Virus record (IMG/VR): IMGVR_UViG_3300050821_002969
Coordinates: 64,001 to 103,362 of that record
DNA: 39,362 nt
Strand: one strand, 5' to 3'
From: a virus
Lineage: Duplodnaviria; Heunggongvirae; Uroviricota; Caudoviricetes
Of this stretch, positions 1-39,362 are shown piece by piece. Positions within the stretch are counted from its first letter, which is position 1, and the number at the start of each line of letters is the position of its first letter. A program made the position numbers and the translations under genes. The notes beneath the pieces are model-generated. The model saw only the letters and a program-made list of their open reading frames with translations. It was not told the origin of the DNA and searched no databases.

Positions 1-315
1 AGAATAACAAGCAATCAAGTGGCCAATGTATATTTGTTGCAAACATTGCACGTTACGTCTTTTGTTCGCTTTTATTTGGCGCTAGTTTGGCTTGTAACTT
101 GTTGAATGTTCGTTAGATTTCCACAGCCATGCCAGTGCGTTTTCCCGCGTCTAGGCAAGCGAACGTGTTTTGATGCCACTGAGGTATTACCGTGCTCCCG
201 TTCGTGCATCCTAGACGATTCGCATATTGAGACAAGATGCCCGCATGTTTCGCCATTACTTCGCCTTGCAACCATTGGCATGGTTTGGTCATCTTATTTA
301 TCGGAGGTAAATACC

Positions 316-9854: not shown

Positions 9855-10301
9855 CGTTTCTTCTTTTGGCCTTAGAGAAATAAACTCCCTATATGCCATA
9901 ATTTTTGATTTTATGGTTGGAATCATAGTGTTTATCGAATACCCATAAACTATCAACAAGCTTCTTTCGCCGTTTCCGTTGGTTTGTTCGAGGGCTTTTT
10001 TAAGTAATTTGCAGCCAATCTCTATGTTTAGCCGTGGTTCTAGTAGTTCTACCTGTTTTTGTCTGTAACCTTCATTGCGGGCTGCATCAGAACCTATCTG
10101 TAATAAGCCTAGGCGGCTTTCTGGCGCATTATTTCTACTTAATGCTGGGTTGTACTGCTGTGGGTCCATGGATTGCTCTACGAGGGCTGGATTAAAGCTA
10201 GATAGGGTATCTACAATTGCCAGCACAAACTCTGGAGGCAACCCCTCTGTCGTAGCAATGTCGGCTACCAGTGCGCAAAGTTCGTTTTTCTGATAAATCA
10301 C
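9843..10301 (-). CDS. SLT lytic transglycosylase-like protein lacking the catalytic Glu
   Basis: AIVDTLSSFNP where ES is expected; GLLQI; LLEPRLNIEIGCKLL. Confidence 0.7.
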   Translation of the reverse strand: MIYQKNELCALVADIATTEGLPPEFVLAIVDTLSSFNPALVEQSMDPQQYNPALSRNNAPESRLGLLQIGSDAARNEGYRQKQVELLEPRLNIEIGCKLLKKALEQTNGNGERSLLIVYGYSINTMIPTIKSKIMAYREFISLRPKEETSIR

Positions 10302-10480
10302 TCGCTTAAGTGTGGCGCAATCGCTTCCCCAAGTAAATCTAGGGCGTATTGCGTGAATGTAAGTTTGTTGTTTTCATTTAGATAAACAACGACCTCATCG
10401 TCAGAAATCCTCATAGACATTATCATGTCTGGGTCTATCTCGTATTGACACGAAAGCTCTTGGTCTTCGTCACTCATCAT
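10298..10480 (-). CDS. Small acidic hypothetical protein
   Basis: Overlaps both neighbours. Confidence 0.45.
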   Translation of the reverse strand: MMSDEDQELSCQYEIDPDMIMSMRISDDEVVVYLNENNKLTFTQYALDLLGEAIAPHLSE

Positions 10481-12218
10481 CTTTGGTAAACGCGGCTAGA
10501 TTTTTGGAACCGTGATATGACTTGTTGCGCTCTATCTTTTGCGCGGCTTGTTCGCGTGCTCCCTTAACTACGTTGGCGCGACTTTCCACTTTGGTCTTTT
10601 GGGCAGATATTTCCTCTGGAGTAGAACCCTCCCAAATTATGTCCGTACCCCGTTCGGGGATGTTGATTTTATATCCCGGAGTACGAGGCATAAAAGCATT
10701 GGTTGGCGGTGGCACGCTTGGACCCTGAAGCGAGACATGCAAACCAGTGTCGCCACGATCTTTCAATAATTGCCATCCCGCCCTAATATCATTGTCCCTT
10801 GGATCGCCTAGCAACGCACGCTTGCCGCGTACCAACGAAGCCTCGGCTGCGCGATATGGAGTAGGAGCCACGTCGCCAAGCGGGATTGCCGCTTTGCCGC
10901 GAGCCTGTTGCCATCGGCGCTCCATGGTGTCTGCTACGTCCCTCAATTGGCCGTTCCTAGTCTTAATCTCGGCAACATTTACCCCCAGCCTATCGCCTAC
11001 ACGGTTCTGTAGTTCCCCATATAAAACCTTGCGAATCGAGCTAGCCTCTCTACGCAATTCAGTTTCCGCCCCGACGGCCGCTTCGGATGGCAATCCCCCT
11101 TTGCCGCGCTCATAGTTTTTGAATAACATATCATTCAAATCGTTGAGCCTAGTGTCTAATTGACGCAGAGTTGCGGTACCAGTGTCTTGGTTGTATGCAC
11201 CTTGGTAGTTGGGGATTCTAGCCTTTGCCATTACTTCTACGTCTTGAACTGGGGCAAGTATATCTCGTTGGTAAAGCGAATGGAATTTATCAGCAGTTTG
11301 CATAGATAAATCAATCAAATCGCGTCTACCCTTTGGCTCTAGTCCGGTTTCTTGGGAGGTACCAATTAAATATGGCAGGTTCGATTTAAGCTCTTTGTCG
11401 AACTTCGCATAGTCGTTCCGCGCGGCATCGCCTTCCGCTCCAGATAACGCAACCTCTTCTGGTGGGTTGACTGCTCTAACCAGTAAATCGGCAGGTGTTT
11501 TGACATACTTGTTTTCCTGTGCCATTCTGACGGCATCAAATACTTCTGGGGTCCAGTGTGTGATCTGCCCTACTGGCAGCCCAAATAGGGTTGCCACTCC
11601 GGCAGACTCTAATGCTTGACTCGGAGTTGCTCCATGAGTTAATGCGACCCCACCAGCTACCGCACCCTGACGCATGGATTGCATCCCAAGTTCAAGCGCC
11701 CTCTGCACTTTTGGGGCAGTTTCTAAGGCTTTGTGAATCTTGCCAACCATCAGATATTTATCGCCCAGCGTTAACCCCTTAAGCGCTTCGTCGCCCAAAA
11801 CAAACTCGCCAACACCTTCTAGTCCAGCCCCTAGCGCCTCTCCTGTCCCTTCTGGCGTATTGGGATTAATGTCTGTATTAATAGGATTTTCTGTCTTTTC
11901 TGGTAATCCTTGAAGGTGCGCTAAATTGATCGCGGAACCAACGGTTCCCGTTGGCCCAAATTGCCCAGCGGCGTGTACCGTGGAGGCTAGCGCTTTGCCG
12001 ATTCCAGCAGGAATACCACTTGCGGCTTGTCCAAGCTGTTCTGGATCGGACAAGTTTACTGGTGATTGGTCGGTATTTTTGTTACCTAAGTTTAACGGCG
12101 GCGGAATCGGACGCGATGCCGCTTGATCCCAAATATCTCCATCTCCAGATTGTGGTTGCGGTGGTTGCGGTGTCGTAGTCTGCAGTCTTGTTGCTGCATC
12201 GTCCCAAATATCGCTCAT
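10470..12218 (-). CDS. Putative internal virion/DNA-ejection protein
   Basis: 582 aa, helical Ala/Gly-rich; repeated DIWDxAA at N-terminus; lies downstream of tail genes. Confidence 0.6.
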   Translation of the reverse strand: MSDIWDDAATRLQTTTPQPPQPQSGDGDIWDQAASRPIPPPLNLGNKNTDQSPVNLSDPEQLGQAASGIPAGIGKALASTVHAAGQFGPTGTVGSAINLAHLQGLPEKTENPINTDINPNTPEGTGEALGAGLEGVGEFVLGDEALKGLTLGDKYLMVGKIHKALETAPKVQRALELGMQSMRQGAVAGGVALTHGATPSQALESAGVATLFGLPVGQITHWTPEVFDAVRMAQENKYVKTPADLLVRAVNPPEEVALSGAEGDAARNDYAKFDKELKSNLPYLIGTSQETGLEPKGRRDLIDLSMQTADKFHSLYQRDILAPVQDVEVMAKARIPNYQGAYNQDTGTATLRQLDTRLNDLNDMLFKNYERGKGGLPSEAAVGAETELRREASSIRKVLYGELQNRVGDRLGVNVAEIKTRNGQLRDVADTMERRWQQARGKAAIPLGDVAPTPYRAAEASLVRGKRALLGDPRDNDIRAGWQLLKDRGDTGLHVSLQGPSVPPPTNAFMPRTPGYKINIPERGTDIIWEGSTPEEISAQKTKVESRANVVKGAREQAAQKIERNKSYHGSKNLAAFTKDDE

Positions 12219-14440: not shown

Positions 14441-15237
14441 TAGAAAATGCCGCCGCCAGCGCCTAGGCCCATATCTCCGCCAGCACTACCAGCAATTGAG
14501 CTAGCCGCACCGGCACCTTGCATAAGTGTAGACATTCCGCCAGTAGCAAACCCTACGCCAGCATTAATCAATCCACCAAGCACGCCAGAAAGTAAGTTGC
14601 TGCCAAAGCTACCTTCTTGGTTTATCGTGTGCGCTTGGTCAAACGAATTCTTGTTGGAGTTAGTTAGCAAGTTTCCAACCTGTGGCGACATTCCCAACAT
14701 TTGCGGGATGTTTTCTAACCCGGCAAGCGCCGTCATCTGTTGCTGATTCTTGTACTGCTGATTTGCTAGGCCGATATTCAAATTTCCTTGCGCTACCGTA
14801 TTTCCAGCGGCGGAATCAATTTGTGCCTGAATAGCTTGCTCGACTCCGCTAGGCAACCCTTTCATGTTTTGCGTGGCGAATGCTTCTTGCGATGACTGCT
14901 TGGCGTTTAGTGCCTGCGCTCCAGTTGTGTTGACTAGTTGTGCCTCTAGGTCGGCAATGGCGACGGGACCGAATCCCGTGGGGTTTTCGTACATTGACTT
15001 AAGCTGGGGCGTGAGGAAATTATTTAAAAATGACTGCTGTTCGCTGAATTGGGATACGAAGTCATTTTGGAGCATTAACGATTCTGACGCCGCTTGCTGT
15101 TGGGCATTCTGTTCGGCGGCGGATGGGCCGCCACATAAACGTACCAATGGGGCGCTATCGGGATAATCAAAGTAGACAGACTCAAGCGGCTGAAGGGTTT
15201 CTATGTCGAACGAGTAATGGACGTAGATTCTTGGCAC
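14440..15237 (-). CDS. Putative ejection protein (P22 gp7-like position); likely GTG start at 15237
   Basis: Leader ending LCGG, Gln/Asn/Ala-rich body, Gly-rich hydrophobic C-terminus. Confidence 0.6.
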   Translation of the reverse strand: MPRIYVHYSFDIETLQPLESVYFDYPDSAPLVRLCGGPSAAEQNAQQQAASESLMLQNDFVSQFSEQQSFLNNFLTPQLKSMYENPTGFGPVAIADLEAQLVNTTGAQALNAKQSSQEAFATQNMKGLPSGVEQAIQAQIDSAAGNTVAQGNLNIGLANQQYKNQQQMTALAGLENIPQMLGMSPQVGNLLTNSNKNSFDQAHTINQEGSFGSNLLSGVLGGLINAGVGFATGGMSTLMQGAGAASSIAGSAGGDMGLGAGGGIF

Positions 15238-15719
15238 ACTGTAGATTCTAGGGGAGTTTGTGAAACTTGTTCTAGCCACAATACTTGTTCGTGTCCGCTT
15301 GCAGTAAACCCAAGATAACGTTGGCAAAATTTGGCGAGCGCTGGGCTTTCTGTGTCAAAAATTATCTGACTATAACCGTTGGCCTTGGCGCGTTTTACTA
15401 TGTCGGAAAACTGGGTGACCAAACAGCGGGCTATTTTTTGTTTACTCACATCGCAGAACTGGACGTGTAAGCGCAAAACTGAACTGAGACGGGCGAACAT
15501 GATTACCGTTTCTTCGTCCTCGAAAACGATGGATTGCGTATTTGGTGCAACGAAAAACGCAGACTTGAGCCACTCTTTATGGCAGGCGTCAGAACGTATT
15601 TCTTGCTCCATGCGCGGGAAGTCCGATTTGTTTATCGGACGCGAGGTAATCATGCAGCGCCTTGTGTGTCGCACAATCAGGTTTTTAACGGGAACGATGT
15701 CATGTTTAGTGTGCGTCAT
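15201..15719 (-). CDS. GNAT-fold virion-module protein (T7 gp13-like position)
   Basis: AKANGYSQIIFDTES..LAKFCQRYLGF; lies between tail and ejection genes. Confidence 0.45.
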   Translation of the reverse strand: MTHTKHDIVPVKNLIVRHTRRCMITSRPINKSDFPRMEQEIRSDACHKEWLKSAFFVAPNTQSIVFEDEETVIMFARLSSVLRLHVQFCDVSKQKIARCLVTQFSDIVKRAKANGYSQIIFDTESPALAKFCQRYLGFTASGHEQVLWLEQVSQTPLESTVCQESTSITRST

Positions 15720-16405: not shown

Positions 16406-19317
16406 TAGTGTCCTTGCAATTGTGGCAATTGGCCAGCGGCGGGCGAGTTCGCTTCCTGCTTGCCGCTTAACCCAAGTCCTAGCACTTCATTCTGTGCCGC
16501 TTCCGCTGGAAATTGCAGTAATATCTGCACATATTTTACCGCTTCAGGTAGCTTCATTGTTAGCCATTGATATCTCAGACTTCTGTAATTTTGGGCAATC
16601 GCTCCGTAGGTTGGCGGGTCGTTCACCGGATTGGTTATAGCGGTAAATGTTCCCGTAATTTGTGAACCGGGAGCGTTGGTTAGCGTTACCCCGGCATCGT
16701 TTGCTAGAACAGATACAATCGGGGCACTGCCAGCGTTGGTTAGTTCAAGATAAAGATTTTCTACCTTGGCCAGCGTTCCTGGGTCGGCTTCTTGGATGGT
16801 TCCAATTACCACGTTGGGCGCGTAGGCTGTCCCTAAATCGCTAAACGTATTCAAGTCGCGTTGCGCTAGGCTTGTTCCGGTTCCAATCAAATACTTCCAA
16901 ACTCCGGGCTGTGTTTCCATGGTTCCCGCCGCAGTCATGTTAGTAAATTTCGGCAGGGCGGGTAGGCACCACGCTTGCTGACGGCTGTTGAATGGATACA
17001 AAACCTGTTTCGCGGTATCTAGCAAGAAAATCATCGCATCTAAACCGGAGCGGTACATGGCGACATAGGCTTGCGTTGGGTCTATGGACTGCAATTGGTC
17101 TGCGATTACCCCGCCCCCAACCTCTTCAACCCCGGCAGCGGTTATGGTAACAAACTGTCTGTCGGCGGTGAATACATAAACATTCGAGCCATCCGTATCT
17201 ACTGCGTTGTAGTTCCATGTTCCAACATCTTTTATGAAGTCATTGACCGTAAATGAAGTTGTAGAGATACCGCGAACCACCTTTATGTCTTCTAGTGTGT
17301 GTACAAGCATTCCATTGGGCAGAGCGGTTAATCGTAGCGACGTGTTTGGTAGAACAAACACATACGCCGGATTCCAGTTAGATTGCTGTAGACCAGAAAT
17401 TGAGTCTGGGCCAGTAGAAAAGAAAAGCTGACTACCGACCACGCCCCACATCCTGCCAGCAAACCATTCCATGGCGATTAAGTTGGCCGGTGGCGGGGTG
17501 TTTTGCAGGGCGGTTGAAGCTTGGTTGTTAACTTGAAGTGAAGTATCTGCGGCAGTATCGGTTACATTGCCAGTCGTGTTCGGATATGGAGACGTTGGCA
17601 ATTCGTAAAATATCGTGCCGCCGCCTGCGTCTACGGTGCGATATACGCGAATTTGGTTTACTTGTGGATCGGTAGACGCGGTTAATGCTACGGTTACACC
17701 GGCCTTGTTTGTAATTGGCCCGGTATTAGCCGAGGCACCTGAAGCATTAGAGATTTCTCCGCTTACCGAGTTTCCGTAAGCAAATACATAGCTCCAACCG
17801 TTTACGGCATTTACGGAACCACCGGCACCAGACACGGTTACGGTAGGCCCACCCGAACCAAAAACGGTAATTTGCACATAGTCTACCGAAAACAAAAACG
17901 CACTAACAGAATTAATAACGTTTGCCACAATGCCCGCACCAAAGTTGGTTTGGTTAACGTCGTTCGCAACCCAGGTTGTTCCCCATAAATCAGATGGCCC
18001 CCCATAACTTACAAACCCATCGCTGGTTCCAAGTGTGGCCGTATAAGTATTGCCAACAAGCGAGCCATTTTTTAAAAGAGTGAGTGCTAGGTTGGTGGCC
18101 TTGGTTCCTGTAGTTGACCCAGTTTGAATCCAGACTTCAAAAATTGAATGTGTGGCCGCAGCACTACCGGCCCCACCGGGGGCAGTCTCGGAAGCTGTAA
18201 CAATTACCGTACTTGTGTCGGTGGTTGGGTCAAGCACGATTGTGTCTGTTTGTTTAGTTCTGGAAGATGTAATGTCATAAACCGTGCCGCTTCCTTTGTT
18301 GCTAGTCCATGTCAAGAGAACCTCGCAACCGGAACCGCTAATCAGCACCGAAGAACTGATATTCAGAATAATCGGTGCCCCACCGGGGTTTACGGGGAAC
18401 GCCGAAAAGTTCTGCGATTTACTAGAACCGCCACCGCCTTGCGTTACTACGCCAGTACATGCTGTACCAAAATTTCCATCATAGGCTAGCGTTGGATTAG
18501 AGTAGGTTCCAGTATGCGCGGTAGGGCGTAGCGTGAAGTCTTGGCCAACGAATCCCCTTACGTCTACTTGGATACCGGAAATTGTCGTTGTGGCTGGTAC
18601 CGAAAATCCAAGATTGGTTCCTTCTAAAAGTCCAGCAGATGCTACTTTTCCGCTAGCTATTCCAGCAACCAATACAGTAGAAACAGCACCATCATTGGCT
18701 TGAATGTTTGTAGGGTTAGTCCATGCGGCACCGTTTATATTGGCACCGGTACCAACCGCCGATGGTCCTACTGAATTGGCTACGTTGGCAATAGAAATTC
18801 CCCAATTCGTTACTCCTTGTGAACCCGTTGGGCCATCCCATTTAAACGCAAACCCGTTTCCGCTGACAAATAAATAATTACCCACACCAAACATGTACCC
18901 CTTGCTGCCAATGGAGCCAACCGGCTTAGTAAAGATTACCGTTGGCGATGTTGAGTTTGGTGGGATGTATTCGATGTCAACGGTTGTATCGAAGATTTGA
19001 AACGTACCAAGACTGGCCGTTTTCCAACTGTAGGTATTCAGTAGCGTGCCGTTTAAAATTCCCGATGTGCAGTAATTGATATAGCCCGGTCGGCGCTGGA
19101 GTGTTAAGCGCGGAGTAATCTCCATATCGTTGCCAGAGAGCAGGGCGTCGTAAAGTTCGATAACCCGGCGTCCCATTAGGCGAATGGGCGTGACTAATTG
19201 ATTTCTTAAAGTTACAAGCCCGGTATAGAATCTCGCGAACCACAATGGCGGTGCTTCAAAAAAATATGAAATATTAGGCAACCTCTCCGAAGCCATAAGC
19301 GCTGTGCTCGTTGGCAT
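16405..19317 (-). CDS. Large tail protein, probably nozzle/stabilisation (P22 gp10 / T7 gp12-like) with inserted beta-rich domains
   Basis: 970 aa; propeller-like LQRRPGY, WFAGRMWG, LFFS segments; Thr/Gly/Ser-rich inserts; position after the adaptor. Confidence 0.6.
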   Translation of the reverse strand: MPTSTALMASERLPNISYFFEAPPLWFARFYTGLVTLRNQLVTPIRLMGRRVIELYDALLSGNDMEITPRLTLQRRPGYINYCTSGILNGTLLNTYSWKTASLGTFQIFDTTVDIEYIPPNSTSPTVIFTKPVGSIGSKGYMFGVGNYLFVSGNGFAFKWDGPTGSQGVTNWGISIANVANSVGPSAVGTGANINGAAWTNPTNIQANDGAVSTVLVAGIASGKVASAGLLEGTNLGFSVPATTTISGIQVDVRGFVGQDFTLRPTAHTGTYSNPTLAYDGNFGTACTGVVTQGGGGSSKSQNFSAFPVNPGGAPIILNISSSVLISGSGCEVLLTWTSNKGSGTVYDITSSRTKQTDTIVLDPTTDTSTVIVTASETAPGGAGSAAATHSIFEVWIQTGSTTGTKATNLALTLLKNGSLVGNTYTATLGTSDGFVSYGGPSDLWGTTWVANDVNQTNFGAGIVANVINSVSAFLFSVDYVQITVFGSGGPTVTVSGAGGSVNAVNGWSYVFAYGNSVSGEISNASGASANTGPITNKAGVTVALTASTDPQVNQIRVYRTVDAGGGTIFYELPTSPYPNTTGNVTDTAADTSLQVNNQASTALQNTPPPANLIAMEWFAGRMWGVVGSQLFFSTGPDSISGLQQSNWNPAYVFVLPNTSLRLTALPNGMLVHTLEDIKVVRGISTTSFTVNDFIKDVGTWNYNAVDTDGSNVYVFTADRQFVTITAAGVEEVGGGVIADQLQSIDPTQAYVAMYRSGLDAMIFLLDTAKQVLYPFNSRQQAWCLPALPKFTNMTAAGTMETQPGVWKYLIGTGTSLAQRDLNTFSDLGTAYAPNVVIGTIQEADPGTLAKVENLYLELTNAGSAPIVSVLANDAGVTLTNAPGSQITGTFTAITNPVNDPPTYGAIAQNYRSLRYQWLTMKLPEAVKYVQILLQFPAEAAQNEVLGLGLSGKQEANSPAAGQLPQLQGH

Positions 19318-20275
19318 TCATGTATTTCTTAATGCAATTATGGTTGGCACATAATACTTGGTAGTCTTCGGGGTGTTTAATGGCGCGTAATATAACCGCG
19401 TAAGAACCACCAAGTGCTCTAATCTCTTTTCTGCCGCCTCCCTTAATGTGGTCAATCTGTAAAACTCGGCGGTCAATAATCCCGCATCCAGCCCATGTAC
19501 ACTGGTTCCCGAGCACGCTAAATACTTTATCTCTATGCGTTAAGCGTTTCTCTTTTTGGTATTCCCTGTCGCAAGCCAAGCAACACCATACCCAAATCTT
19601 TCCGGCTTTTGTTTTCATAAGACCAAATTCGTCTGGATATTGTTTTGGTTGATTACACAAGCGGCAAATGCGAATTTCTTTAGGCTCCGCAACCTTCAAT
19701 GCAGATGGACGGCCACCCCTGCCGATCTTGCCGCTAGTTTCATTGTTTAAATGTCGCTTAATCCAATTGTGATTAGCACAAAGCAATTGAAAGCCAATAG
19801 GGTTATCTCTAGCCTGACGATAGAGCTTGTGCATTCCGATAGTTCTGCGCTGGATACCCCCTCCACCCTCGATATGGTCTAGTTGCAGAACCCGTGGATC
19901 AGTCCAATCGCAACCCTCAGTCCAGTTGCATTTATTTCCCAATAGCGAAAACAGATCAGATTTTAGGCGATTGTAGTTTTTTCGCCCTAACTTACGATGA
20001 CACTGCTTGCACCTAGCGGGACCAAGGTTTCCAGTTGCGCTATCTTTTTGAAGCGCAAAATCTTCTGGGTAAGCCTTTTCGTTCCCGCAATTACTGCAAA
20101 CATGGACGGTTTTTGGCCCCAACGGGGCGTGGCGCGTGATCCAGGATTTCTTTACTTGCTCGCTATCTGAGGGCATATTCCAGATTTTACCGCAGATGAA
20201 CATGGCATTACATGGCGAGTTTATAGGAGTTATCAGAAGGTAAAACGGTCTTGGGCGCGTCTCTCTGCAATGCAA
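19274..20275 (-). CDS. HNH endonuclease with tandemly duplicated Zn-finger + HNH unit
   Basis: Two copies of LGNxC-W-GC..D-RVLQ[LI]DHI-GGG..Q[LV]LCANHN-IK. Confidence 0.75.
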   Translation of the reverse strand: MHCRETRPRPFYLLITPINSPCNAMFICGKIWNMPSDSEQVKKSWITRHAPLGPKTVHVCSNCGNEKAYPEDFALQKDSATGNLGPARCKQCHRKLGRKNYNRLKSDLFSLLGNKCNWTEGCDWTDPRVLQLDHIEGGGGIQRRTIGMHKLYRQARDNPIGFQLLCANHNWIKRHLNNETSGKIGRGGRPSALKVAEPKEIRICRLCNQPKQYPDEFGLMKTKAGKIWVWCCLACDREYQKEKRLTHRDKVFSVLGNQCTWAGCGIIDRRVLQIDHIKGGGRKEIRALGGSYAVILRAIKHPEDYQVLCANHNCIKKYMNANEHSAYGFGEVA

Positions 20276-20776: not shown

Positions 20777-21358
20777 TTATCTTGTTTCTCCTTTGGCGTT
20801 AATCCACTTCGTGCGCTTGAGGTAGAGAATCATTGACTCCAAAGTAGCAATATCATGGCGTGCTAGCCCAATGGCCGTGTTGCATGGGGTACATAGTAAA
20901 CCACGGACACATTTGCCGCAAGATTTTCTTTCTGAACAGCAATCGGTATCGTGGTCCACGCAGAGGCGGCGCACCCTGCCCGTGGTTGGTTCCTTTGCGG
21001 GACATATTGCACAATGTCCATCTTGAGAATTTAGTATTCTTGCGTAATCCTCAATCGTTAGATTGTAGTTATAGCCAAGGAGATAATCGGGGCGATATTC
21101 GGGATGGGATTCGCGCCACTTCTTGTTTAGCCTACCGCGCTGAATACGATTGGCGTTGTTCCATGCACGGTTGTAGAAGGTTACCTTGTCACGATTGTTG
21201 CGTTTCCATTTTTTGCACCGCTCTTTTTCGTAATCTGGATTCGCGGCGTGATATGCATCGTTGTACTGTTTGACGTGTTCTGCGTTTTTCAGTTTCCACG
21301 CCTTTAAGTATTCTGCCTTCTTGATCTTTTGTTCTGGTGTTAATGTTTTATTGGTCAT
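20777..21358 (-). CDS. Endonuclease VII-family HNH nuclease
   Basis: YNLTIEDY..QDGHCAIC..LCVDHD..VRGLLCTPCNTAIG. Confidence 0.8.
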   Translation of the reverse strand: MTNKTLTPEQKIKKAEYLKAWKLKNAEHVKQYNDAYHAANPDYEKERCKKWKRNNRDKVTFYNRAWNNANRIQRGRLNKKWRESHPEYRPDYLLGYNYNLTIEDYARILNSQDGHCAICPAKEPTTGRVRRLCVDHDTDCCSERKSCGKCVRGLLCTPCNTAIGLARHDIATLESMILYLKRTKWINAKGETR

Positions 21359-21390
21359 TGCTACAGTATAGCAGTAACCTACTGAAAATA

Positions 21391-22797
21391 CTACCCTCCG
21401 CGCATCAGCGGCAAGTCCGGGTGATACGATTCTGAGCGTTGCTCTTGGTCCTTGGCGTCTAGGCAACGTAAGACGTTTTGTTCGTGCTTCGCTTGCATTG
21501 TGGGAAATCTAGGGTCCTCATACCAGCTCAGGGCCGCCGCCAAAACTCCACTTCTTAAGCAGTACGCCAAATTATCCGGCCACGGAAACCAAGTATTTTG
21601 TAGCGAAGTTTTAATCGGCGCTTTCTGCTGGTAGAAGATGAATGCTTGCCAGATTTGGCTAGACGGTACAGGCCAAAAGCGAAATGTCAACGTGGTTCCG
21701 AACGCTTGCCCACTAGGGCTGCCAATGGTTTCCAAGATTCCGTTTGCGATAATGATAGGCGTGTTGGCGGCAACATAAAGAACCTGTGGATTAACGGAAA
21801 ACGCAGTGGAAGTGGTAACCAGATTTTGCGCCGCGTTTACACTTAGCTTCCATGTTGTGGCCGTGGTCGAATCGTTGAGCAAGAAGAAAGATTGGCCAAC
21901 AAGGTTGGTAAGCGTGATGGTAATTTGGCCAGCCGCGTTTACGCCAAGAAGCCAGTTGCCGCCGTTTGGGTCTTGTAAGACTATCGGCGTAACCGCAGGC
22001 GTGTTTTCGAGCAACATGCAGACCTTGAATGGCGGCTGGATAATGCTCTCGATATAGAGGCTAGAAACCACTTCTATGTCGTGTACGGGCCTCACTGTGC
22101 CCGTATTCATGTAATCCTGAAGGGTGCAGTGGGAAACCCAGTTTAAGTCGCCTATACCCTGCCCGCCATCGTTTTGTAGGCCGGTAGTCGCAACCGTAAA
22201 TTTAACTCCCAAAATGCCGCCATTGGTTCCGGTAACAAGCGCGGTTATGGGAGCGTTGGTTACGTTCATGGCGGGCTGTGCCGCGCCGGTAATGGTGACT
22301 ACTTGACCTACTTGCGGAATGCTGCTACCGGAAGTAACCGGCTGCGATCCCGGAGGGCCGTTTAGTCCAAATGTTCCATTGGGGGCGAAGTCGGAAAACA
22401 ACGCGGTAACCGTAGTGCCAGATTGCGATAGCCCTGGCCCGCTAGCCGAGATAACAGAATTCAAATGAACTACACATATCGGTACCGGAGGCTGTATTCC
22501 AGCATTTACACTCATCTGGCAGCCAGATAAAACGTAGTCTTGCTGGTATGGGATAGTGGTAAACGGGGCTATTGCTCCCTTGTTAAACTTCCAATCGTAG
22601 GGAGACGAAAGCAGCAGTTGCAAGGTATCGTTGCAGATTGATAGCGCAGGCTCGTTGGGCACACCCCCGGCACCGATGAGTGGGGCCATACGCAGATGGG
22701 TCTGACAAAACGATACCACGTCATTCAGGCTCAATGTGCTACTCAACGGCCACCCTCCGCGCCAATATTTTTCCCATGTGCGAGTAGAAAAACTCAA
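21391..22797 (-). CDS. Head-tail adaptor / tail tubular A-like protein with insertions; start likely near 22746
   Basis: N-terminal helical NDTLQLLL..YDWKFN; C-terminal FWPVPS..FYQQKAP..WPD. Confidence 0.55.
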   Translation of the reverse strand: MSFSTRTWEKYWRGGWPLSSTLSLNDVVSFCQTHLRMAPLIGAGGVPNEPALSICNDTLQLLLSSPYDWKFNKGAIAPFTTIPYQQDYVLSGCQMSVNAGIQPPVPICVVHLNSVISASGPGLSQSGTTVTALFSDFAPNGTFGLNGPPGSQPVTSGSSIPQVGQVVTITGAAQPAMNVTNAPITALVTGTNGGILGVKFTVATTGLQNDGGQGIGDLNWVSHCTLQDYMNTGTVRPVHDIEVVSSLYIESIIQPPFKVCMLLENTPAVTPIVLQDPNGGNWLLGVNAAGQITITLTNLVGQSFFLLNDSTTATTWKLSVNAAQNLVTTSTAFSVNPQVLYVAANTPIIIANGILETIGSPSGQAFGTTLTFRFWPVPSSQIWQAFIFYQQKAPIKTSLQNTWFPWPDNLAYCLRSGVLAAALSWYEDPRFPTMQAKHEQNVLRCLDAKDQEQRSESYHPDLPLMRGG

Positions 22798-23497
22798 CCG
22801 AGTGAGCCATTTTCATTCGATTGCAAATGCCGCAGCATGGAACAATGTTCCAACTAGCATATCCCTTACCACTATCTAATCTGTCAATCCCGTTATAAAC
22901 ATATGGAAGCGGCTGGTATTCACCTAGGTATCCTCGACATTTATAGACCTGCGACGGGGCGGTTCCGCAAAAATAACAATCCATCCGCGTGATTAACTTG
23001 AATTCATTTATGGAAATACTGAATTCTCTGTTTGCCCTTTTGGCGGCGCTTTTATATTGAGCAAACAAATTGTTGGCGGCTGCTTCGTTTTTGGTACTAC
23101 GAGGCTTGTGATATATGCAGCCACAGCTTTTAACCGACCTCTTAAACAGTTGGCATGGTAATACGTCTTTTGCACCGCCACATTCACACAAACACTTCCA
23201 GCGTATAGATGTGTGTTCTTGGCGAAGTGCCGTTTTCTTTATTGTGGTCGGTTCGCCTATGCCGACAACGGTTAGTTTGCCGAAGACCTTACCTATTTGC
23301 AATTCGTAATCCGTGGAACATCCACACGTTGCAGAATTGCCGGTTCTTAAATCTCGGCCACGCACCAGTGTCTCTCTGCCGCAATCACATTTACACACCC
23401 ACGCTGCGAGCGTACCCTTGCCGTTTGGCTTATTTTCCCCGCGCCGCAACACAAGCAATTTACCGAATCTTTGGTCAGTTAAATCTATTACTCTCAT
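22739..23497 (-). CDS. Free-standing HNH homing endonuclease with repeated DLTxQRFGKL/CxCxCG units
   Basis: Two WxCxCxCG units; CYFCG..NGIDRLDS..NIVPCCGICNRMK. Confidence 0.8.
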   Translation of the reverse strand: MRVIDLTDQRFGKLLVLRRGENKPNGKGTLAAWVCKCDCGRETLVRGRDLRTGNSATCGCSTDYELQIGKVFGKLTVVGIGEPTTIKKTALRQEHTSIRWKCLCECGGAKDVLPCQLFKRSVKSCGCIYHKPRSTKNEAAANNLFAQYKSAAKRANREFSISINEFKLITRMDCYFCGTAPSQVYKCRGYLGEYQPLPYVYNGIDRLDSGKGYASWNIVPCCGICNRMKMAHSVEFFYSHMGKILARRVAVE

Positions 23498-25137
23498 TAG
23501 AACCCCGAGCACTGCCAGCGAATATGATCCGAAGTTCCGCCACCGCTTTCTTGTACGGTTACGGATGAGGTTGCGTAAGTGTTAAAAGAAATAATCCCCG
23601 CCGCGTTGGTTAGGTCGGAACCGGAACAGGAGTAATCGGCGGCTGCCGTAAATGGCAGACCCGTGATTGATTGAGTGGCCGCGCTATTTAGTAACACGTC
23701 GCCGCGAATTACGTAAAACGTAGGCTTTACCGTTCCCGCACATGCTTGCGTGCCGCCGCTTGTAGAACCACAATCTTGAAATACCGCGCCAGACACCGTA
23801 ATGGAAGCGTCGGGAAGGGTGGATGTACGGTTTGCCGATGGGGCGCTAGTTAGTGTGTTTGTAAACGTGGTGGCACCGCCACCGGTAAGCGCCACAGTGT
23901 CAAACGTCTGTGCGTAGTAACGATAGATACACGGCCCTTCGGCGCTGCCAACCTGTAACGGCGGGCAGTATATTAATCTTCCAGTGAAACTACTGTTGTA
24001 TTCGTTGGTAATTCGCGTACCGAACACTAAGTCTTCCGGCTCTAGGCGAATAGCGTTCGGGGAATTATTGGTAAGGCTCCAAAAATTAGTTACCGTATGC
24101 CCAACTGCAACAAATTCCTGAAGGCCGCGCACATCCAGTGTGTCTCCGCCAAACGTCATATTTTGGGCAACGGTTCCAGTGGGAAGGTCGTTCTCCACTT
24201 CTCCGCCGCGAATAAAAACCTTTCCCGCCGCCGCGTTTATCCACTGGTCGGACGTTGCGGCGTAAGTGCAGCCCATAATGCACCCGGCGTTCTCGAAATG
24301 GATAATATCCAGTGTTAGAGTGGAATTACCGCTCATATTGAAGCCATTCACAATGTTGTCATCAATCGACATATTCGAGAACGACATTTCCGATCCTGTA
24401 GCCGTCATTGATACGCCGGTATTGTTGGAGCATATGCAGCCGCCAATAAACGTATTGTGTTCAACAAGTAAATCATTCAAAATGCCAACATTGTTGCCAG
24501 ATATTTGAGCGTTTACGCTAGTCAGGTCAAACGTGCTATGAACATATAGGCCAGTAGCAAATCCCGCCCCAAGTTTCCCGATTCTTACGTTTGAAATAAA
24601 TTGTTGGTCGGTACCGGAAGATGGCCCTAGGCTTACACCAACGGAAGTAACGCCAGAACAATTTGGGGCGTTTCCAGAGTTTGTACACGCACCATAGATT
24701 GCCAAATCCCTGATTCCCCACCCGGTAAAATGGGCAGCAGTATAGTCAAACGTAATAGCCGTACCGGACGACGGGGTGAACGTAAGACACGTCGCACCCC
24801 CTGGATCGCCCTCTATCATGGCCGGTTTAGACGAGACGTTAAATAGTATTGGCGTTAGATATGACCAGCATCCGCCAGATGGGTTTGGTGGAATTCTTAG
24901 ACGGCAACCGGTAGCGCCGCACTGTGTACTCGCATATGCGGTGTTTACTTGCGCCCCAATATCGCTACCATTAAAGAATGTCGGGTTAATTATTGCGTTG
25001 ACCGACGACATGGTTTGTGGGCCGGTCCACGCGCAGGTTTGGTCTAGCGCACAAAAAATGTGGGTAGTTTGCGAGGTTAGAACAAGCGCAGAAAACAATA
25101 CTACAATGGCGCTGCCAATCCAGAATAATTTCTTCAA
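23497..25137 (-). CDS. Tailspike-like right-handed beta-helix (pectate lyase-like) protein with hydrophobic N-terminal leader
   Basis: Gly/Asn/Ile-rich rungs (IRDLAIYG, ISGNNVGI, IDDNIVNG); MKKLFWIGSAIVVLFSALVL. Confidence 0.7.
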   Translation of the reverse strand: MKKLFWIGSAIVVLFSALVLTSQTTHIFCALDQTCAWTGPQTMSSVNAIINPTFFNGSDIGAQVNTAYASTQCGATGCRLRIPPNPSGGCWSYLTPILFNVSSKPAMIEGDPGGATCLTFTPSSGTAITFDYTAAHFTGWGIRDLAIYGACTNSGNAPNCSGVTSVGVSLGPSSGTDQQFISNVRIGKLGAGFATGLYVHSTFDLTSVNAQISGNNVGILNDLLVEHNTFIGGCICSNNTGVSMTATGSEMSFSNMSIDDNIVNGFNMSGNSTLTLDIIHFENAGCIMGCTYAATSDQWINAAAGKVFIRGGEVENDLPTGTVAQNMTFGGDTLDVRGLQEFVAVGHTVTNFWSLTNNSPNAIRLEPEDLVFGTRITNEYNSSFTGRLIYCPPLQVGSAEGPCIYRYYAQTFDTVALTGGGATTFTNTLTSAPSANRTSTLPDASITVSGAVFQDCGSTSGGTQACAGTVKPTFYVIRGDVLLNSAATQSITGLPFTAAADYSCSGSDLTNAAGIISFNTYATSSVTVQESGGGTSDHIRWQCSGF

Positions 25138-25354: not shown

Positions 25355-25882
25355 TCAGTCCACGTAAACTACGCTGTTTCCACGCTGGGTGGGTATCCTC
25401 AACTTTTCTTTGTATTGCGACCAGATTTCTTCGGTCAAGCATTCTTCGCGCTTTGGACTAAACAATGCAGGACAGTGTTGGCAAATTCCGCGAGTTATAC
25501 CGTCAGATTGACGCGCCCAGGCGATTGCGCTACTTTGATCTTCGCGTTGGTGACTACAGCTATTGGCGCGAAGCACCTGGCCTTCCCAGTATGCTTTCTG
25601 TGCTTGGAGTTTAGCTTCGTGCGCCCTGGCCTGTTGTTTTTCATGGAATTCGCTTACGGGCGGCTTGCGAGCTACCTCAATAGCTTGAGCCAGTTTTTCG
25701 GCAAACATTACTTGGCTTTCGTTCATTTTAGCGTTGAACGCAGCCAATAGTTGCGCAAATTCGCTTACGGGAACAGCGATTGTGCTGGTTGATTCGGTTG
25801 GTAGCTCTGCGGTGGGTTCTAGCTCTGCTGGTACTTCTACTGCTTCAAATGGATTAACCTTACTACGGGCCAAACGGTTCAC
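25355..25882 (-). CDS. Hypothetical protein with coiled coil and Cys/His C-terminal domain
   Basis: CSHQRED..GICQHCP. Confidence 0.55.
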   Translation of the reverse strand: MNRLARSKVNPFEAVEVPAELEPTAELPTESTSTIAVPVSEFAQLLAAFNAKMNESQVMFAEKLAQAIEVARKPPVSEFHEKQQARAHEAKLQAQKAYWEGQVLRANSCSHQREDQSSAIAWARQSDGITRGICQHCPALFSPKREECLTEEIWSQYKEKLRIPTQRGNSVVYVD

Positions 25883-25893
25883 GCTCCTAAGTG

Positions 25894-26379
25894 TTAAATG
25901 CTATACAAGATTCTACTGCCAACGCCAACCCCTTCGGCCAATTCAGCATCTATCTCTTTCTTGCGAGCGGCGGATACCATGGTCCACATCGTCTTGGCGG
26001 CACGGTAGGATAAATCTGTGGCAGCTTTTTTAACAACGGGGTCGATTGCCAACGATAAATCGGACATCGAAAAATAATCGCTATATTGCCGCATGGTAGC
26101 AAATTCGGGCAGTAAATCATCGGCGGCAATCTCGTGCAACGTGAACGGATGAATGATGCCAAAATATGCGTCCTTGCCCTGTATGTAGGTTGCGGTTTGG
26201 AGTTGGTTTACTGCGTTGCGAAGATCGGATGCCGTTAAAACGCCAGCAGTCTTTGGGATGAACCACTTTGGGCTACGCTTAACCCAAGAGATGAATTCGG
26301 CAAAGAACCCAACCTCTGCCATGGTTGCTGTAGCAACCCCAGCGCCAGCGGCTAATTGCAGGAAGCGTCTACGGTTCAC
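25894..26379 (-). CDS. Twin-arginine-signal protein containing rearranged major-capsid-like segments
   Basis: [18 protein letters not shown]; [17 protein letters not shown] matches this phage's capsid LSASLTRQAV..FAGIIHPF; QYSDY..AIDPVV..SYRAAKT. Confidence 0.7.
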
Positions 26380-26543
26380 TTCTCTGGCCGGTCATCTACA
26401 AGTTCTTTCATGGCAGATTTAAACTCTTTTATGCCTTGTCCGATTCCCTTGCCCAGTTCCGGCAGTTTGCGTGGACCAAAGACAAGTATGGCAATACCGA
26501 AAATTACCAGCAGGTGCATGGGTTGGAACAATCCTTCAAACAT
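26376..26543 (-). CDS. tatA: Twin-arginine translocase TatA/E subunit (55 aa, below the ORF-track cutoff)
   Basis: [55 protein letters not shown]; FG hinge, LPELG amphipathic helix; GAGGAG RBS. Confidence 0.92.
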
Positions 26544-26805
26544 TTTTACTCCTCACGTCCGCGTGATTTTCTTGGACTTTAAGGATTGTACCATCCGAAG
26601 CAAGGCCAACGGCCACAGCGTTACCTTTGTGGTCGCGGATTGATATGTAATGCGCGTTATCTCCGATTGGGTCACTAACACACGGCCCAGCATCAATCAA
26701 GTGTATGTCCACGCCAGACCATCGCCTAATGAGCGCCTTAATGCCAGCAGCCTCTACCTCGGTCAACCCACCGTGATATGCAGTTGAAGATGGTGCGTAT
26801 GCCAT
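26536..26805 (-). CDS. Hypothetical protein
   Basis: ORF fills the gap and overlaps the tatA start. Confidence 0.5.
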
Positions 26806-28947: not shown

Positions 28948-29442
28948 TTATTCTCCTATGTTAACTCTGGCTAGCTCACCGAATACTTCTTTTGCCGCCC
29001 TGTCGTATGCCTTAGCGGCTTCCGTCTTGTCGGTAAAACTTCCCAGATACTTGGTTTTTCTGGCAACCGTAATATTTGCGTGCCAGCGTTTTTTGTTCTT
29101 GTGCCACGTTACACCCTTAAGTCCGCTTACGTTTCCGATGCGCGGCTTAGTGTTGTGTGCGTTTCTATTCCTAGTAGCGTATATAAGATTTGATCGCTGA
29201 TAATTTAGCGTGTTCAAATCCTTGTGGTCGCATACTAAATCTTTTGGCTTTGGACCAATTACTAAATGGTGCAACCAAAGCTGTTTTGTTTTTCCGTACT
29301 GCCCACCGCCGCGAGTGCTAACAACGTAACCATTTTCATTTAACCACCACTCGCTATGCTTAACTGCCGCCTCGTATACATCATCGTCTACAATCGCCGT
29401 CTTTTTGGAGTTGGTTAATGGTAAGAGCTTCATAAGAAGCAT
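28948..29442 (-). CDS. HNH-AP2 homing endonuclease
   Basis: LHHLVI..CDHKDLNTLNYQRSNL; SGLKGVTWHK..YLGSF..AAKAYDRAA. Confidence 0.85.
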   Translation of the reverse strand: MLLMKLLPLTNSKKTAIVDDDVYEAAVKHSEWWLNENGYVVSTRGGGQYGKTKQLWLHHLVIGPKPKDLVCDHKDLNTLNYQRSNLIYATRNRNAHNTKPRIGNVSGLKGVTWHKNKKRWHANITVARKTKYLGSFTDKTEAAKAYDRAAKEVFGELARVNIGE

Positions 29443-37830: not shown

Positions 37831-39362
37831 TCAAGAAATCGACGCTTCTGCTTTCAGAAGTCGAAATCTTGGGTGGAGTGCCGCTGATTGTGGAACCCTC
37901 ATGGCTGCGTACTTAAAATTGTACGCGCATGAAGCGCCCACTACCCTTGCTGGATCGGCTACCGATGGTTCCCAGTTACGCACGATCAACTGATAATTCC
38001 GTTGTTCCGGGATTTCAGTTGCACCAAGCGATACCGAGAATACAGCATCTTGTCCGACAACGTAGGTACCGTAACCCGTCTTGCTTCCTGACGGGAAGGA
38101 CGCGAAGGTCGATGCGGTGGTTGTTTCAATGAATCGAGCGCCAGCTACATCTATTACGCGATACCCCTGTACACCACGCATGAGTTCTTCCGAACCCTCT
38201 TTGTGGTATTTGCAATCTGTTACCCGTAGTTTTTAACTACGCGGCCATCTCATTTCTGGATGACTCAATGCATCGCTGCATTGTTCGGACTATCTCTTTG
38301 CCCACTTGGGCATCGCCTATATAGTCTCTACACGTTCCCTTGCGGGCTTCGCTCGGTGTTTTCTCTTGCGAGACGTTCACCGAATTAGGGCGATTATCAG
38401 TTCTGGGTTTCCCTAGAATGACCCCGATGTTGAGGATATCAATTACGCCGCCTGCTGTATTGTCGTTCAGTCACTTTTGTTTTGGCAGCCAACGTCACCG
38501 TTGGTGCGCTCTTACTGTTACCAGCAAGGTCAGACTCTATCTTCACTAGGCGGCTGTCGCGCATTTCCTAGTGTCTGGCGTATTAGTCGTTACGGATTCT
38601 TGGTTATTGAGAAATTGGCAACGTTCCGCGAGTTTTTGTCTAACCTCGTGGTGTTTGCCTTCTAGGCGAACCCATTCGAGGGCCAACCTTGCTTGCTCTT
38701 GCTTGATTTTTAAATAAGGCAAGATTCCAAGCAGAAAAGGCTCCCGTGCTTCGCGTGTCAGAATGTGCCATGTCCAGCGCTTCCTGTGGTGCTCTTTTAC
38801 TTTTTTGACGCCGTAATAGCGCCCACCAAACATCCCCTGAATCCACGCAATGAGCGGGAAGTGAGAATTGTTGATGCTTATTTGCAACGAAGGCCGCATA
38901 AACGTTTTGGTTGATTTCCGGTAGTAGGTTTTGCCCTTAACCTTATAGGGCGCTCCTTCTCGGTTGGTTGCTTTCCCAAAACCCATGTAAATCGTGCCTT
39001 CAGCATCAAGCATAGAAGCGATGTACGACCAATCTGTATCTAGCATTTCTCGTAACCAAGCCTTTCCTCGGTATTGTCCTTGTGGACGTGATAATTATAA
39101 CACGGCAAGGGGTTCCACCGATATAGCCAGATTACGACCCATGTTTGTTTAGGTCGAACGCAGCAAAAGGGTGAATAATCCCAGCGAAAAGCCCATCCGT
39201 CTGGGGTCTAACGTCCGCACCACGCAGTGACATTACAGCCTGACGTGTCAACGATGCAGAAAGGAATTCGTTGTCAGTGCAGGAAATAACGATGCTGGTG
39301 TCGGCGGTAGCCTCAGCTTCAAACTCGGTACGAGCCAACGTGTTTGCTGTTAGAGCAGCACG
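37831..39362 (-). CDS. Major capsid protein, N4-gp56/P22-coat-like; 5'-truncated and spliced: join(39151..>39362, 38433..38471, 37831..38212)
   Basis: Spliced product RAALTANTL..GIIHPFAAFDL|LNDNTAGGVIDIL|KYHKEGSEELMRG..GARFIETT..YGTYVVGQDAV is one continuous frame. Confidence 0.85.
38213..38432 (-). ncRNA. Group I intron 2 (220 nt, ORF-less)
   Basis: P AAUUCGGUGAA, Q AACACCGAG, P7 GAGACUA/UAGUCC, P3 AUCGCC/GGCGAU, GCGA-capped P9, exon U.G pair, terminal G. Confidence 0.9.
38472..39150 (-). ncRNA. Group I intron 1 (679 nt) carrying a LAGLIDADG ORF
   Basis: P1 CGACCU/GGGUCG, P AUAUCGGUGGAA, Q AAUACCGAGG, P3 UCUGGC/GCCAGA, R GUAACGACUA, S GAAGAUAGAGUCU, terminal G. Confidence 0.9.
38546..39046 (-). 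CDS. Single-motif LAGLIDADG homing endonuclease (intron-encoded)
   Basis: YIASMLDAEGTI; LPYLKIKQEQA. Confidence 0.88.
   Translation of the reverse strand: MLDTDWSYIASMLDAEGTIYMGFGKATNREGAPYKVKGKTYYRKSTKTFMRPSLQISINNSHFPLIAWIQGMFGGRYYGVKKVKEHHRKRWTWHILTREAREPFLLGILPYLKIKQEQARLALEWVRLEGKHHEVRQKLAERCQFLNNQESVTTNTPDTRKCATAA

Follow-up and report, generated by a model that had tools for sequence, protein, structure and literature searches.

The question raised by this locus is why a soil phage of Acidobacteria carries a small gene whose product joins an export-type leader to pieces of a capsid protein placed in reversed order. The gene lies on the minus strand at positions 25894-26379 of the window, by which we mean the whole stretch of 39,362 nucleotides analyzed here; it forms the last 39 kb of a 103,362-bp record (G000), which is considered circular because it has a 97-bp terminal repeat. 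The coordinates include the stop codon of an intact open reading frame that starts with GTG and encodes 161 amino acids (P0001). The protein consists of a leader, a conserved handle and two capsid-derived cassettes, all of which can be assigned to coordinates on the minus strand. The twin-arginine signal, whose motif was read from the sequence, occupies residues 1-21 (26317..26379), and the handle, which is defined by alignments A2 and A4 and by a helix in the structural model, occupies residues 22-43 (26251..26316). Cassette A spans residues 46-87 (26119..26244) and corresponds to capsid positions 152-194 according to a profile hidden Markov model (HMM), a genome search and BLASTP, and cassette S spans residues 94-142 (25954..26100) and corresponds to capsid positions 87-137 according to the HMM and the genome search.

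The gene belongs to a tightly packed series of minus-strand genes arranged head to tail. In the order of transcription, this series contains ORF89 (26536..26805, from the ORF list), a 55-aa TatA/E gene (26376..26543, Pfam PF02416) that ORF89 directly precedes with an 8-nt overlap, P0001, ORF175 (25355..25882), which has a CxH...CxxC motif and partial homology to another protein, P0011, and further genes. The surrounding block encodes glycosyl- and methyltransferases, a nucleotide-sugar epimerase and several HNH/endonuclease VII proteins. A twin of P0001 is present on a separate 89.9-kb contig, where the protein is 99% identical, and the profile of the leader family described below matches P0001 at E 1.7e-24 as its sole match in the genome. 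P0001 is a real gene under selection that encodes a small protein. A tblastn search against 50,697 isolated phages found only the capsid of phage Tunturi_3 (E 0.5) and no homologue of the leader, and in the Protein atlas neither P0001 nor ORF175 has any score above 0.8.

Two further observations concern the neighboring genes. The N-terminus of ORF89, MAYAPSST, resembles the MAYxPAS start of the capsid family, a likeness of only 8 residues that is not significant alone, and the remainder of ORF89 is unrelated. The protein of 546 aa encoded at 23497-25137 (-) begins with a hydrophobic segment, either an anchor or a signal, and matches no family. Apart from that of P0001, its gene is the most diverged between G000 and its relative G001 (32% identity); it may be a receptor-binding or envelope-acting protein.

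The major capsid gene of the phage is also on the minus strand; it starts at coordinate 466 of G000 and crosses the record junction into the window. A putative scaffold of 390 aa is encoded upstream of it. The window contains the end of exon 1 (39151..39362), which is collinear with the Tunturi_3 protein and continues the spliced frame, a 39-nt exon 2 (38433..38471), which opens the frame on splicing and matches the capsid homologue P0094, and exon 3 (37831..38212), which was found by tblastn with the Tunturi_3 capsid and by a profile hit covering capsid positions 204-327. Removal of the two intervening introns, 38472-39150 (first) and 38213-38432 (second), leaves an open frame of 333 codons. 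The resulting 333-aa protein is essentially the same as P0094, an intron-less homologue of 330 aa, and is collinear with the major head protein of the Tunturiibacter phage Tunturi_3. The first intron houses an HNH endonuclease gene (ORF 38546-39046 on the minus strand, phrog_5046). At the gathering threshold, Rfam found no family anywhere in the window, capsid introns included, and it reports no group I intron.

The sequence-only reading, which first drew attention to this gene, had assigned the capsid to the N4-gp56 type, and this assignment agrees with the names of many homologues ("N4-gp56 family major capsid protein" in the JGI annotation). An AlphaFold2 model of the capsid built with 45 homologues (pLDDT 74, pTM 0.74) has Pan3, N4 and other HK97-fold capsids as its best fold matches, while a sequence search of the PDB with the same protein gave no hit. 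The model contains an N-arm helix at 16-33, an E-loop return strand at 90-98, a spine helix at 109-140, a helix at 156-168, a strand at 179-183 and a helix at 185-192.

Inserts in capsid genes were also seen in other phages: an HNH-bearing insert divides the capsid gene of L011, an unrelated phage, and that of G001 has an intron-like in-frame insert. In the window, five HNH/endonuclease VII-type genes occur within a span of 20 kb (19274-20275, 20777-21466, 22739-23512, 28948-29442 and 38546-39046, all on the minus strand), a very high load of likely homing endonucleases.

With the spliced capsid as a reference, the similarity of P0001 to it can be described in two segments. In a BLASTP comparison, residues 48-79 align with the capsid segment LSASLTR...GIIHPF with 16 of 33 positions identical (E 3e-5), as had been claimed from the letters alone, and the codons quoted for the shared motif are correct (GGC ATC ATT CAT CCG TTC against GGG ATT ATT CAC CCT TTT). 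A second stretch had been matched to the capsid region around RAALT. In a search of the phage's own genome, residues 95-143 (AIDPVV...LSYRAAKT) match the capsid gene at G000 44-196 (-) with E 6e-6, and the capsid part concerned lies upstream of RAALT, across the record junction.

A profile HMM built from 45 N4-gp56-type capsid proteins gives the same picture. The match of P0001 to the capsid family, on which the sequence-only reading had been made to depend, is significant (full-sequence E 9.4e-14), and it consists of two non-collinear hits: residues 46-87 correspond to capsid 152-194 (iE 9.5e-4) and residues 94-142 to capsid 87-137 (iE 4.7e-10), so that the reversed order noticed earlier is borne out. 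Five shuffled sets gave no hits with this HMM. When the whole genome was searched in six frames with the capsid profile, cassette A was found at E 0.022 and cassette S at E 9.5e-9, and nothing else was found beyond the true capsid exons. Cassette S also matches the major head protein of Tunturi_3. In terms of the capsid structure, cassette A comprises the A-domain helix, the GIIHPF strand and the following helix, and cassette S comprises the E-loop return strand and the spine helix. Judging from these sequence comparisons, the similarity between P0001 and the capsid is real, old and non-collinear.

P0001 is, however, not a capsid protein, since instead of a collinear match over most of the N4-gp56 profile it has only two short hits. 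Compared with the N4-gp56-type HK97-fold capsids to which it is homologous over these segments (Tunturi_3 gp6, PP885686.1; N4, 9e99; Pan3, 9vye), it covers only about 90 of 330 capsid positions, in reversed order, and lacks the N-arm, the E-loop tip, the P-domain sheet and most of the A domain; conversely, it has a Tat leader, which no capsid protein has.

The earlier proposal that the two segments form a permuted mini-capsid domain is not supported. The AlphaFold2 model of P0001, calculated from a 7-row alignment, has no confident fold (pLDDT 47, pTM 0.19), and relatives carry other subsets of the capsid cassettes; a circularly permuted, folded mini-capsid therefore has no support here. Because relatives use varied subsets of three cassettes, the tail looks like a string of separate segments rather than a permuted domain. 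A predicted complex of P0001 residues 44-161 with the intron-less capsid homologue (alignment A3) scored 0.00 in a run that had no controls, which speaks neither for nor against an interaction.

Three other ideas about the cassettes and the leader were dropped. A higher conservation of the cassettes than of the rest of the capsid is not significant: their mean conservation is 0.775 against 0.718, and 913 of 5000 random placements were as good (p about 0.18). A descent of the handle from the end of the spine helix was based only on an alignment of P0004 reaching capsid position 118, which is too weak. Finally, nothing pointed to trans-splicing of the capsid mRNA with the leader gene as an alternative 5' exon, and the frame of P0001 runs on past the point equivalent to the capsid intron site.

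The leader itself had been called a signal, and its sequence is of the Tat type. Residues 2-8 of P0001 are N-R-R-R-F-L-Q, in agreement with the twin-arginine motif (S/T-R-R-x-F-L-K), and are followed by a weakly hydrophobic core that ends in A-T-A-T-M-A with two overlapping AxA-type motifs; the core and the signal-peptidase site were judged by eye. R3, R4 and F6 are invariant in the family leader alignment, A18 and T19 are nearly invariant, and both the RRxFL motif and the AxA site are conserved family-wide. The Pfam TAT_signal model (PF10518) matches P0001 at E 0.0095 with 16.3 bits, which is below the cut-off of 22.7, and matches 11 of 83 family members at E <= 0.01. The first ~25 positions of the leader (1-24/28) resemble the N-termini of large host proteins in Terriglobia genomes. 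P0001 thus shares with known Tat signal peptides and small Tat substrates (PF10518, TIGR01409) the RRxFL motif, the weakly hydrophobic core and the AxA site; however, its cargo consists of pieces of a virion protein and not of an enzyme or cofactor protein.

The handle distinguishes the family leader from ordinary signal peptides, in that the leader together with the next 20 residues is far more conserved. Residues 22-43 are Trp-rich and predicted to be helical, they form the best conserved stretch in the family, and the P0001 model places a helix at residues 20-35. W32 and P37 are invariant or nearly so in alignments A2 and A4, and R35 is invariant in A4. When the leader profile was searched against 401 Terriglobia genomes, only generic Tat signals on large host enzymes were found and no family member; one match, L102, is a protein of 420 aa whose N-terminus is of an ordinary Tat type and which lacks the handle.

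The GTG start of P0001 overlaps the TGA stop of the upstream 55-codon TatA gene in the sequence GTGA. The TatA/E assignment is clear (PF02416, E 7e-19, 67.2 bits with the cut-off at 21, residues 9-51), and the protein shares 70-91% identity with TatA of Terriglobales and other Acidobacteriota, which identifies the host group and indicates that the gene came from a host. A 55-aa TatA also stands directly upstream with a 4-nt overlap in four other contigs (L004/G001, L005, L006 and L114), while most other family members have no adjacent TatA. As read from this arrangement, P0001 is translationally coupled to a host-derived TatA. Four features make the leader look functional as a Tat signal, namely its motif, a cleavage site that is conserved, its likeness to signals of host proteins and the coupling to TatA. 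Full-text literature searches gave no report of a phage-encoded TatA.

TatA is the pore-forming or membrane-thinning subunit of the Tat translocase, and its presence in an operon within the late gene block could suggest a device for lysis or membrane permeabilization, in which an extra TatA and a substrate that jams or over-recruits the translocase would weaken the membrane on schedule. We regard this as highly improbable: no endolysin or holin was identified beside the operon, the scarcity of neighboring TatA genes in the family speaks against it, and it gives no reason for the capsid mimicry.

P0001 belongs to a large, apparently undescribed phage family. Word-based and exhaustive profile searches recovered at least 81 clusters at E <= 1e-3, with proteins of 56-203 aa. 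They have in common a leader and handle of 43 residues, M-[DN]-RR-x-FL ... A-[ST]-ATMAEAG-x-LAEF-xx-WL-[KR]-RKP-x-WS-x-P, with a Gly-rich core after FL and an amphipathic stretch after ATMAEAG, and the sequence after this leader is hypervariable. A search of IMG/VR with the leader alignment confirmed only three loci, since confirmation there depends on the first sequence. As the segments are short, scanning all 83 members against PHROG and Pfam produced no more than a few weak matches to capsids. Full-text literature searches found no description of Tat-leader capsid fragments or of the P0001 family.

In spite of this hypervariability, capsid segments recur in the tails. When the tails were compared with three panel capsids, 40 of 91 had a hit at E < 0.01 (0-1 of 91 in five shuffles), and 24 of 91 match the N4-gp56 profile (none when shuffled); about half of the family tails have no match to any of the three panel capsids. 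The relatives of G000 use three cassettes, N (capsid ~10-45, the N-arm), S (~87-137) and A (~152-197), and all members with two cassettes have them in reversed capsid order, as A-S, A-N or S-N. However, these members share ancestry and are thus not independent trials of the reversed order. In a second group of the family, the tail consists of the first 35-55 residues of another capsid family, phrog_9953.

The tail also tends to follow the capsid type of the phage that carries it. Such agreement between tail and capsid was seen in G000, G001, L118 and L011, the last of which has a capsid gene split by an HNH intron and a tail of the phrog_9953 type (50% identity to residues 4-35), so that own-type matches come from four phages with two different capsid families. 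The exception is L117, where the capsid gene lies 1.7 kb away and its product has no match to the tail.

The conservation of these segments bears on whether they are functional at all. Member comparisons gave pN of 0.10-0.30 against pS of 0.66-0.90, with near-saturated synonymous sites, for leader and cassettes alike; this agrees with the suggestion, made from the codon differences in GIIHPF, of an old duplicate whose amino acids are kept under selection. One may nevertheless suppose that break repair simply pasted capsid fragments behind a functional leader, in which case only the leader and handle would matter and the order of the segments would be accidental. Such an origin would suit the at least five HNH/endonuclease VII genes in the window, one of them in a capsid intron, the introns or intron-like inserts in the capsid genes of G000, L011 and G001, the mosaic order with its low fold confidence, and the finding that cassette columns are not significantly more conserved than other capsid columns (p about 0.18). 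P0001 is, moreover, truncated: most of its close relatives carry a C-terminal module that it lacks and that was not found elsewhere in the G000 genome, so that P0001 could be a decaying copy. On the other hand, the reading frames are unbroken, pN within the cassettes is much lower than pS, cassette S in P0005 is kept at 57-61% identity to capsid proteins, the same cassettes recur in many members, and a second capsid family was captured independently in the L011 group. We therefore consider mere recombination debris to be very unlikely.

Between G000 and G001, identity is 47-87% for neighboring genes and 78% for TatA but only 37% for the gene under study, whose cassettes differ. The Tunturi_3 isolate has the capsid type and yields no TatA and no leader-family hit. 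In L115, a close relative of 103,216 bp, neither TatA nor the leader gene is present between the same flanking genes; instead, the slot at L115:2364-2963 (+) encodes a leaderless 199-aa protein that starts with MAYTPSST, resembling the capsid family in this, and contains a copy of capsid positions 273-319 (iE 4.9e-13). The slot thus seems to collect capsid-mosaic genes, and the leaderless example indicates that the mimicry need not involve export. Elsewhere, the leader gene of L011 lies between terminase and portal, inside the head-assembly module, and that of L117 also lies inside the head module, between a large gene before it and the capsid gene. Distant members, by contrast, are moron-like: they are found on the strand opposite to their neighbors, in prophage-like contigs, near resolvase, lysis or tail genes.

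These positions bear on the possibility that P0001 acts in the cytoplasm, with its segments binding the capsid protein, the scaffold, the portal or a host immune sensor, and with the leader serving only to tether the protein at the inner face of TatBC, as an anchor or timer, or to dispose of it. To our knowledge, the capsid protein and all its known binders are cytoplasmic, so that a periplasmic mimic has no obvious target, which is the main difficulty of any reading that relies on export. The head-module position in L011 and L117, the leaderless protein that fills the slot in L115 and the identity of the cassettes, namely N-arm, spine helix and A-domain helices, are further points for a cytoplasmic site of action; in P22-type phages, it is the N-arm that contacts the scaffolding protein. 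However, dispensability and rapid evolution set this gene apart from core assembly factors, the conserved signal-peptidase motif and the TatA coupling argue that real export matters, and the moron-like setting of distant members in prophages does not suit an assembly role. Action in the cytoplasm is therefore a doubtful reading, although one to be taken seriously.

The downstream gene provides another clue. Residues 104-147 of ORF175 share 55% identity (E 5e-16) with the C-terminus of the family member P0011, in which the ORF175 C-terminal domain is fused behind the leader and capsid cassettes, and the position of ORF175 is kept in G001 and L115. ORF175 has very few homologues in the searches and matched no known family. 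It is probably linked functionally to P0001. What is new from this locus is the TatA coupling, the non-collinear order throughout the family, the fusion with ORF175 and a variant without leader that occupies the equivalent slot.

The Tat pathway is known to export signal-less proteins together with a signal-bearing one, as in the case of hydrogenase subunits, and P0001 might accordingly dock the signal-less ORF175 in the cytoplasm, the pair being exported folded and the capsid-like segments serving as the docking surface. The P0011 fusion and the adjacency of ORF175 to the slot in G000, G001 and L115 are consistent with such a carrier, and the CxH...CxxC motif suggests a metal site that would need folding before export. 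Nevertheless, ORF175 homologues are few and most family members have none, L115 keeps ORF175 while it has neither the leader protein nor TatA, and the tendency of tails to track the phage's own capsid type would be left unexplained. We consider this explanation quite unlikely.

The reading that we rank first, with somewhat less than even confidence, is that P0001 may be a Tat-targeted mimic of capsid segments that serves in phage-phage or phage-host conflict. It would work as follows. The leader would take P0001 to the TatBC receptor of the host, with the phage TatA providing an extra pore subunit late in infection, and the signal would be removed at the conserved ASA/TMA site. The product would then be held at the membrane by its Trp-rich helix, and the tail, rather than folding as a capsid domain, would display the capsid segments as mimics that occupy a partner normally recognizing the capsid protein. 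Candidate roles are the exclusion or sensing of related superinfecting phages and the decoying of a host factor that reads the capsid protein. We favor a conflict gene over an assembly factor because the gene is optional, fast-changing and cassette-shuffled; these properties, together with its occasional duplication and the agreement that most often exists between its tail and the capsid of the same phage, place the conflict role first. Against a mimic of this kind count the tail mismatch in L117, the tails that match none of the panel capsids, the TAT_signal score of P0001 and its missing C-terminal module, and the head-module position in L011 and L117 fits an assembly role.

A more specific form of the mimic can be envisaged, in which phages of many lineages would use Tat to export mimics of inner-surface segments of their own capsid, the present phage bringing its own TatA for this purpose. 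In the periplasm, the mimics would capture or sense proteins that superinfecting relatives eject and whose usual place is against the capsid wall. This could result in kin-specific exclusion or in lysis timing, and the swapped order would reflect which surfaces have to be displayed rather than a fold. We regard this version as unlikely.

Some known systems resemble parts of the proposed mimic. The Gol peptide of T4 gp23, which acts with the Lit protease, is an example of a short capsid segment that is recognized alone by a cellular factor; however, Gol is part of the capsid protein, is cytoplasmic and triggers a host defense, whereas P0001 is a separate gene with an export leader. T4 Imm, Sp and RI are small periplasmic proteins of superinfection exclusion or lysis inhibition, which act on a later virus or on host recognition, and the hepatitis B e-antigen is a secreted form of a capsid protein with a signal peptide. 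These are analogies only, since none of them is homologous to P0001, uses Tat or consists of shuffled capsid segments. Tab and Tai are optional and variable accessory systems of phages that act against a structural protein in the virions of competing phages; in the portions of the sources cited, Tab (tail assembly blocker) of Pseudomonas phage JBD26 targets tail assembly in the cytoplasm via the tape measure protein, and these portions neither describe it as built from pieces of its target nor mention an export leader (PMC10884400; PMC11364771). Its likeness to P0001 appears to be one of logic only, as the two have no sequence similarity and the target of Tab is not the capsid. By analogy with such systems, and given that the gene is optional, fast-evolving and moron-like in position within the family, P0001 is a candidate superinfection-exclusion or assembly-blocking protein.

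If the proteins are capsid mimics, they would represent a new class of phage accessory gene that can be recognized from the invariant leader alone. This leader recurs among soil phages whose capsids belong to two different families. It would also follow that something in the cell or in competing phages reads short capsid segments, and that phages, here with a TatA gene of their own, make use of the Tat pathway. We predict that tails follow the capsid type of the phage that encodes them, which can be checked by computation.

Two minor observations concern other members of the family. The 28-kb contig L098 carries two paralogous leader genes with different tails, at 10001-10618 and 14915-15253, and a third ORF with a Tat signal at 11859-12167 (-). 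Finally, 19 of 84 family proteins end in Ala, often as -VA or -AA, and in L011 the member P0040 and a putative scaffolding protein (L011:15090-15986) both end in -KVA, which could be due to chance or to a shared C-terminal signal.
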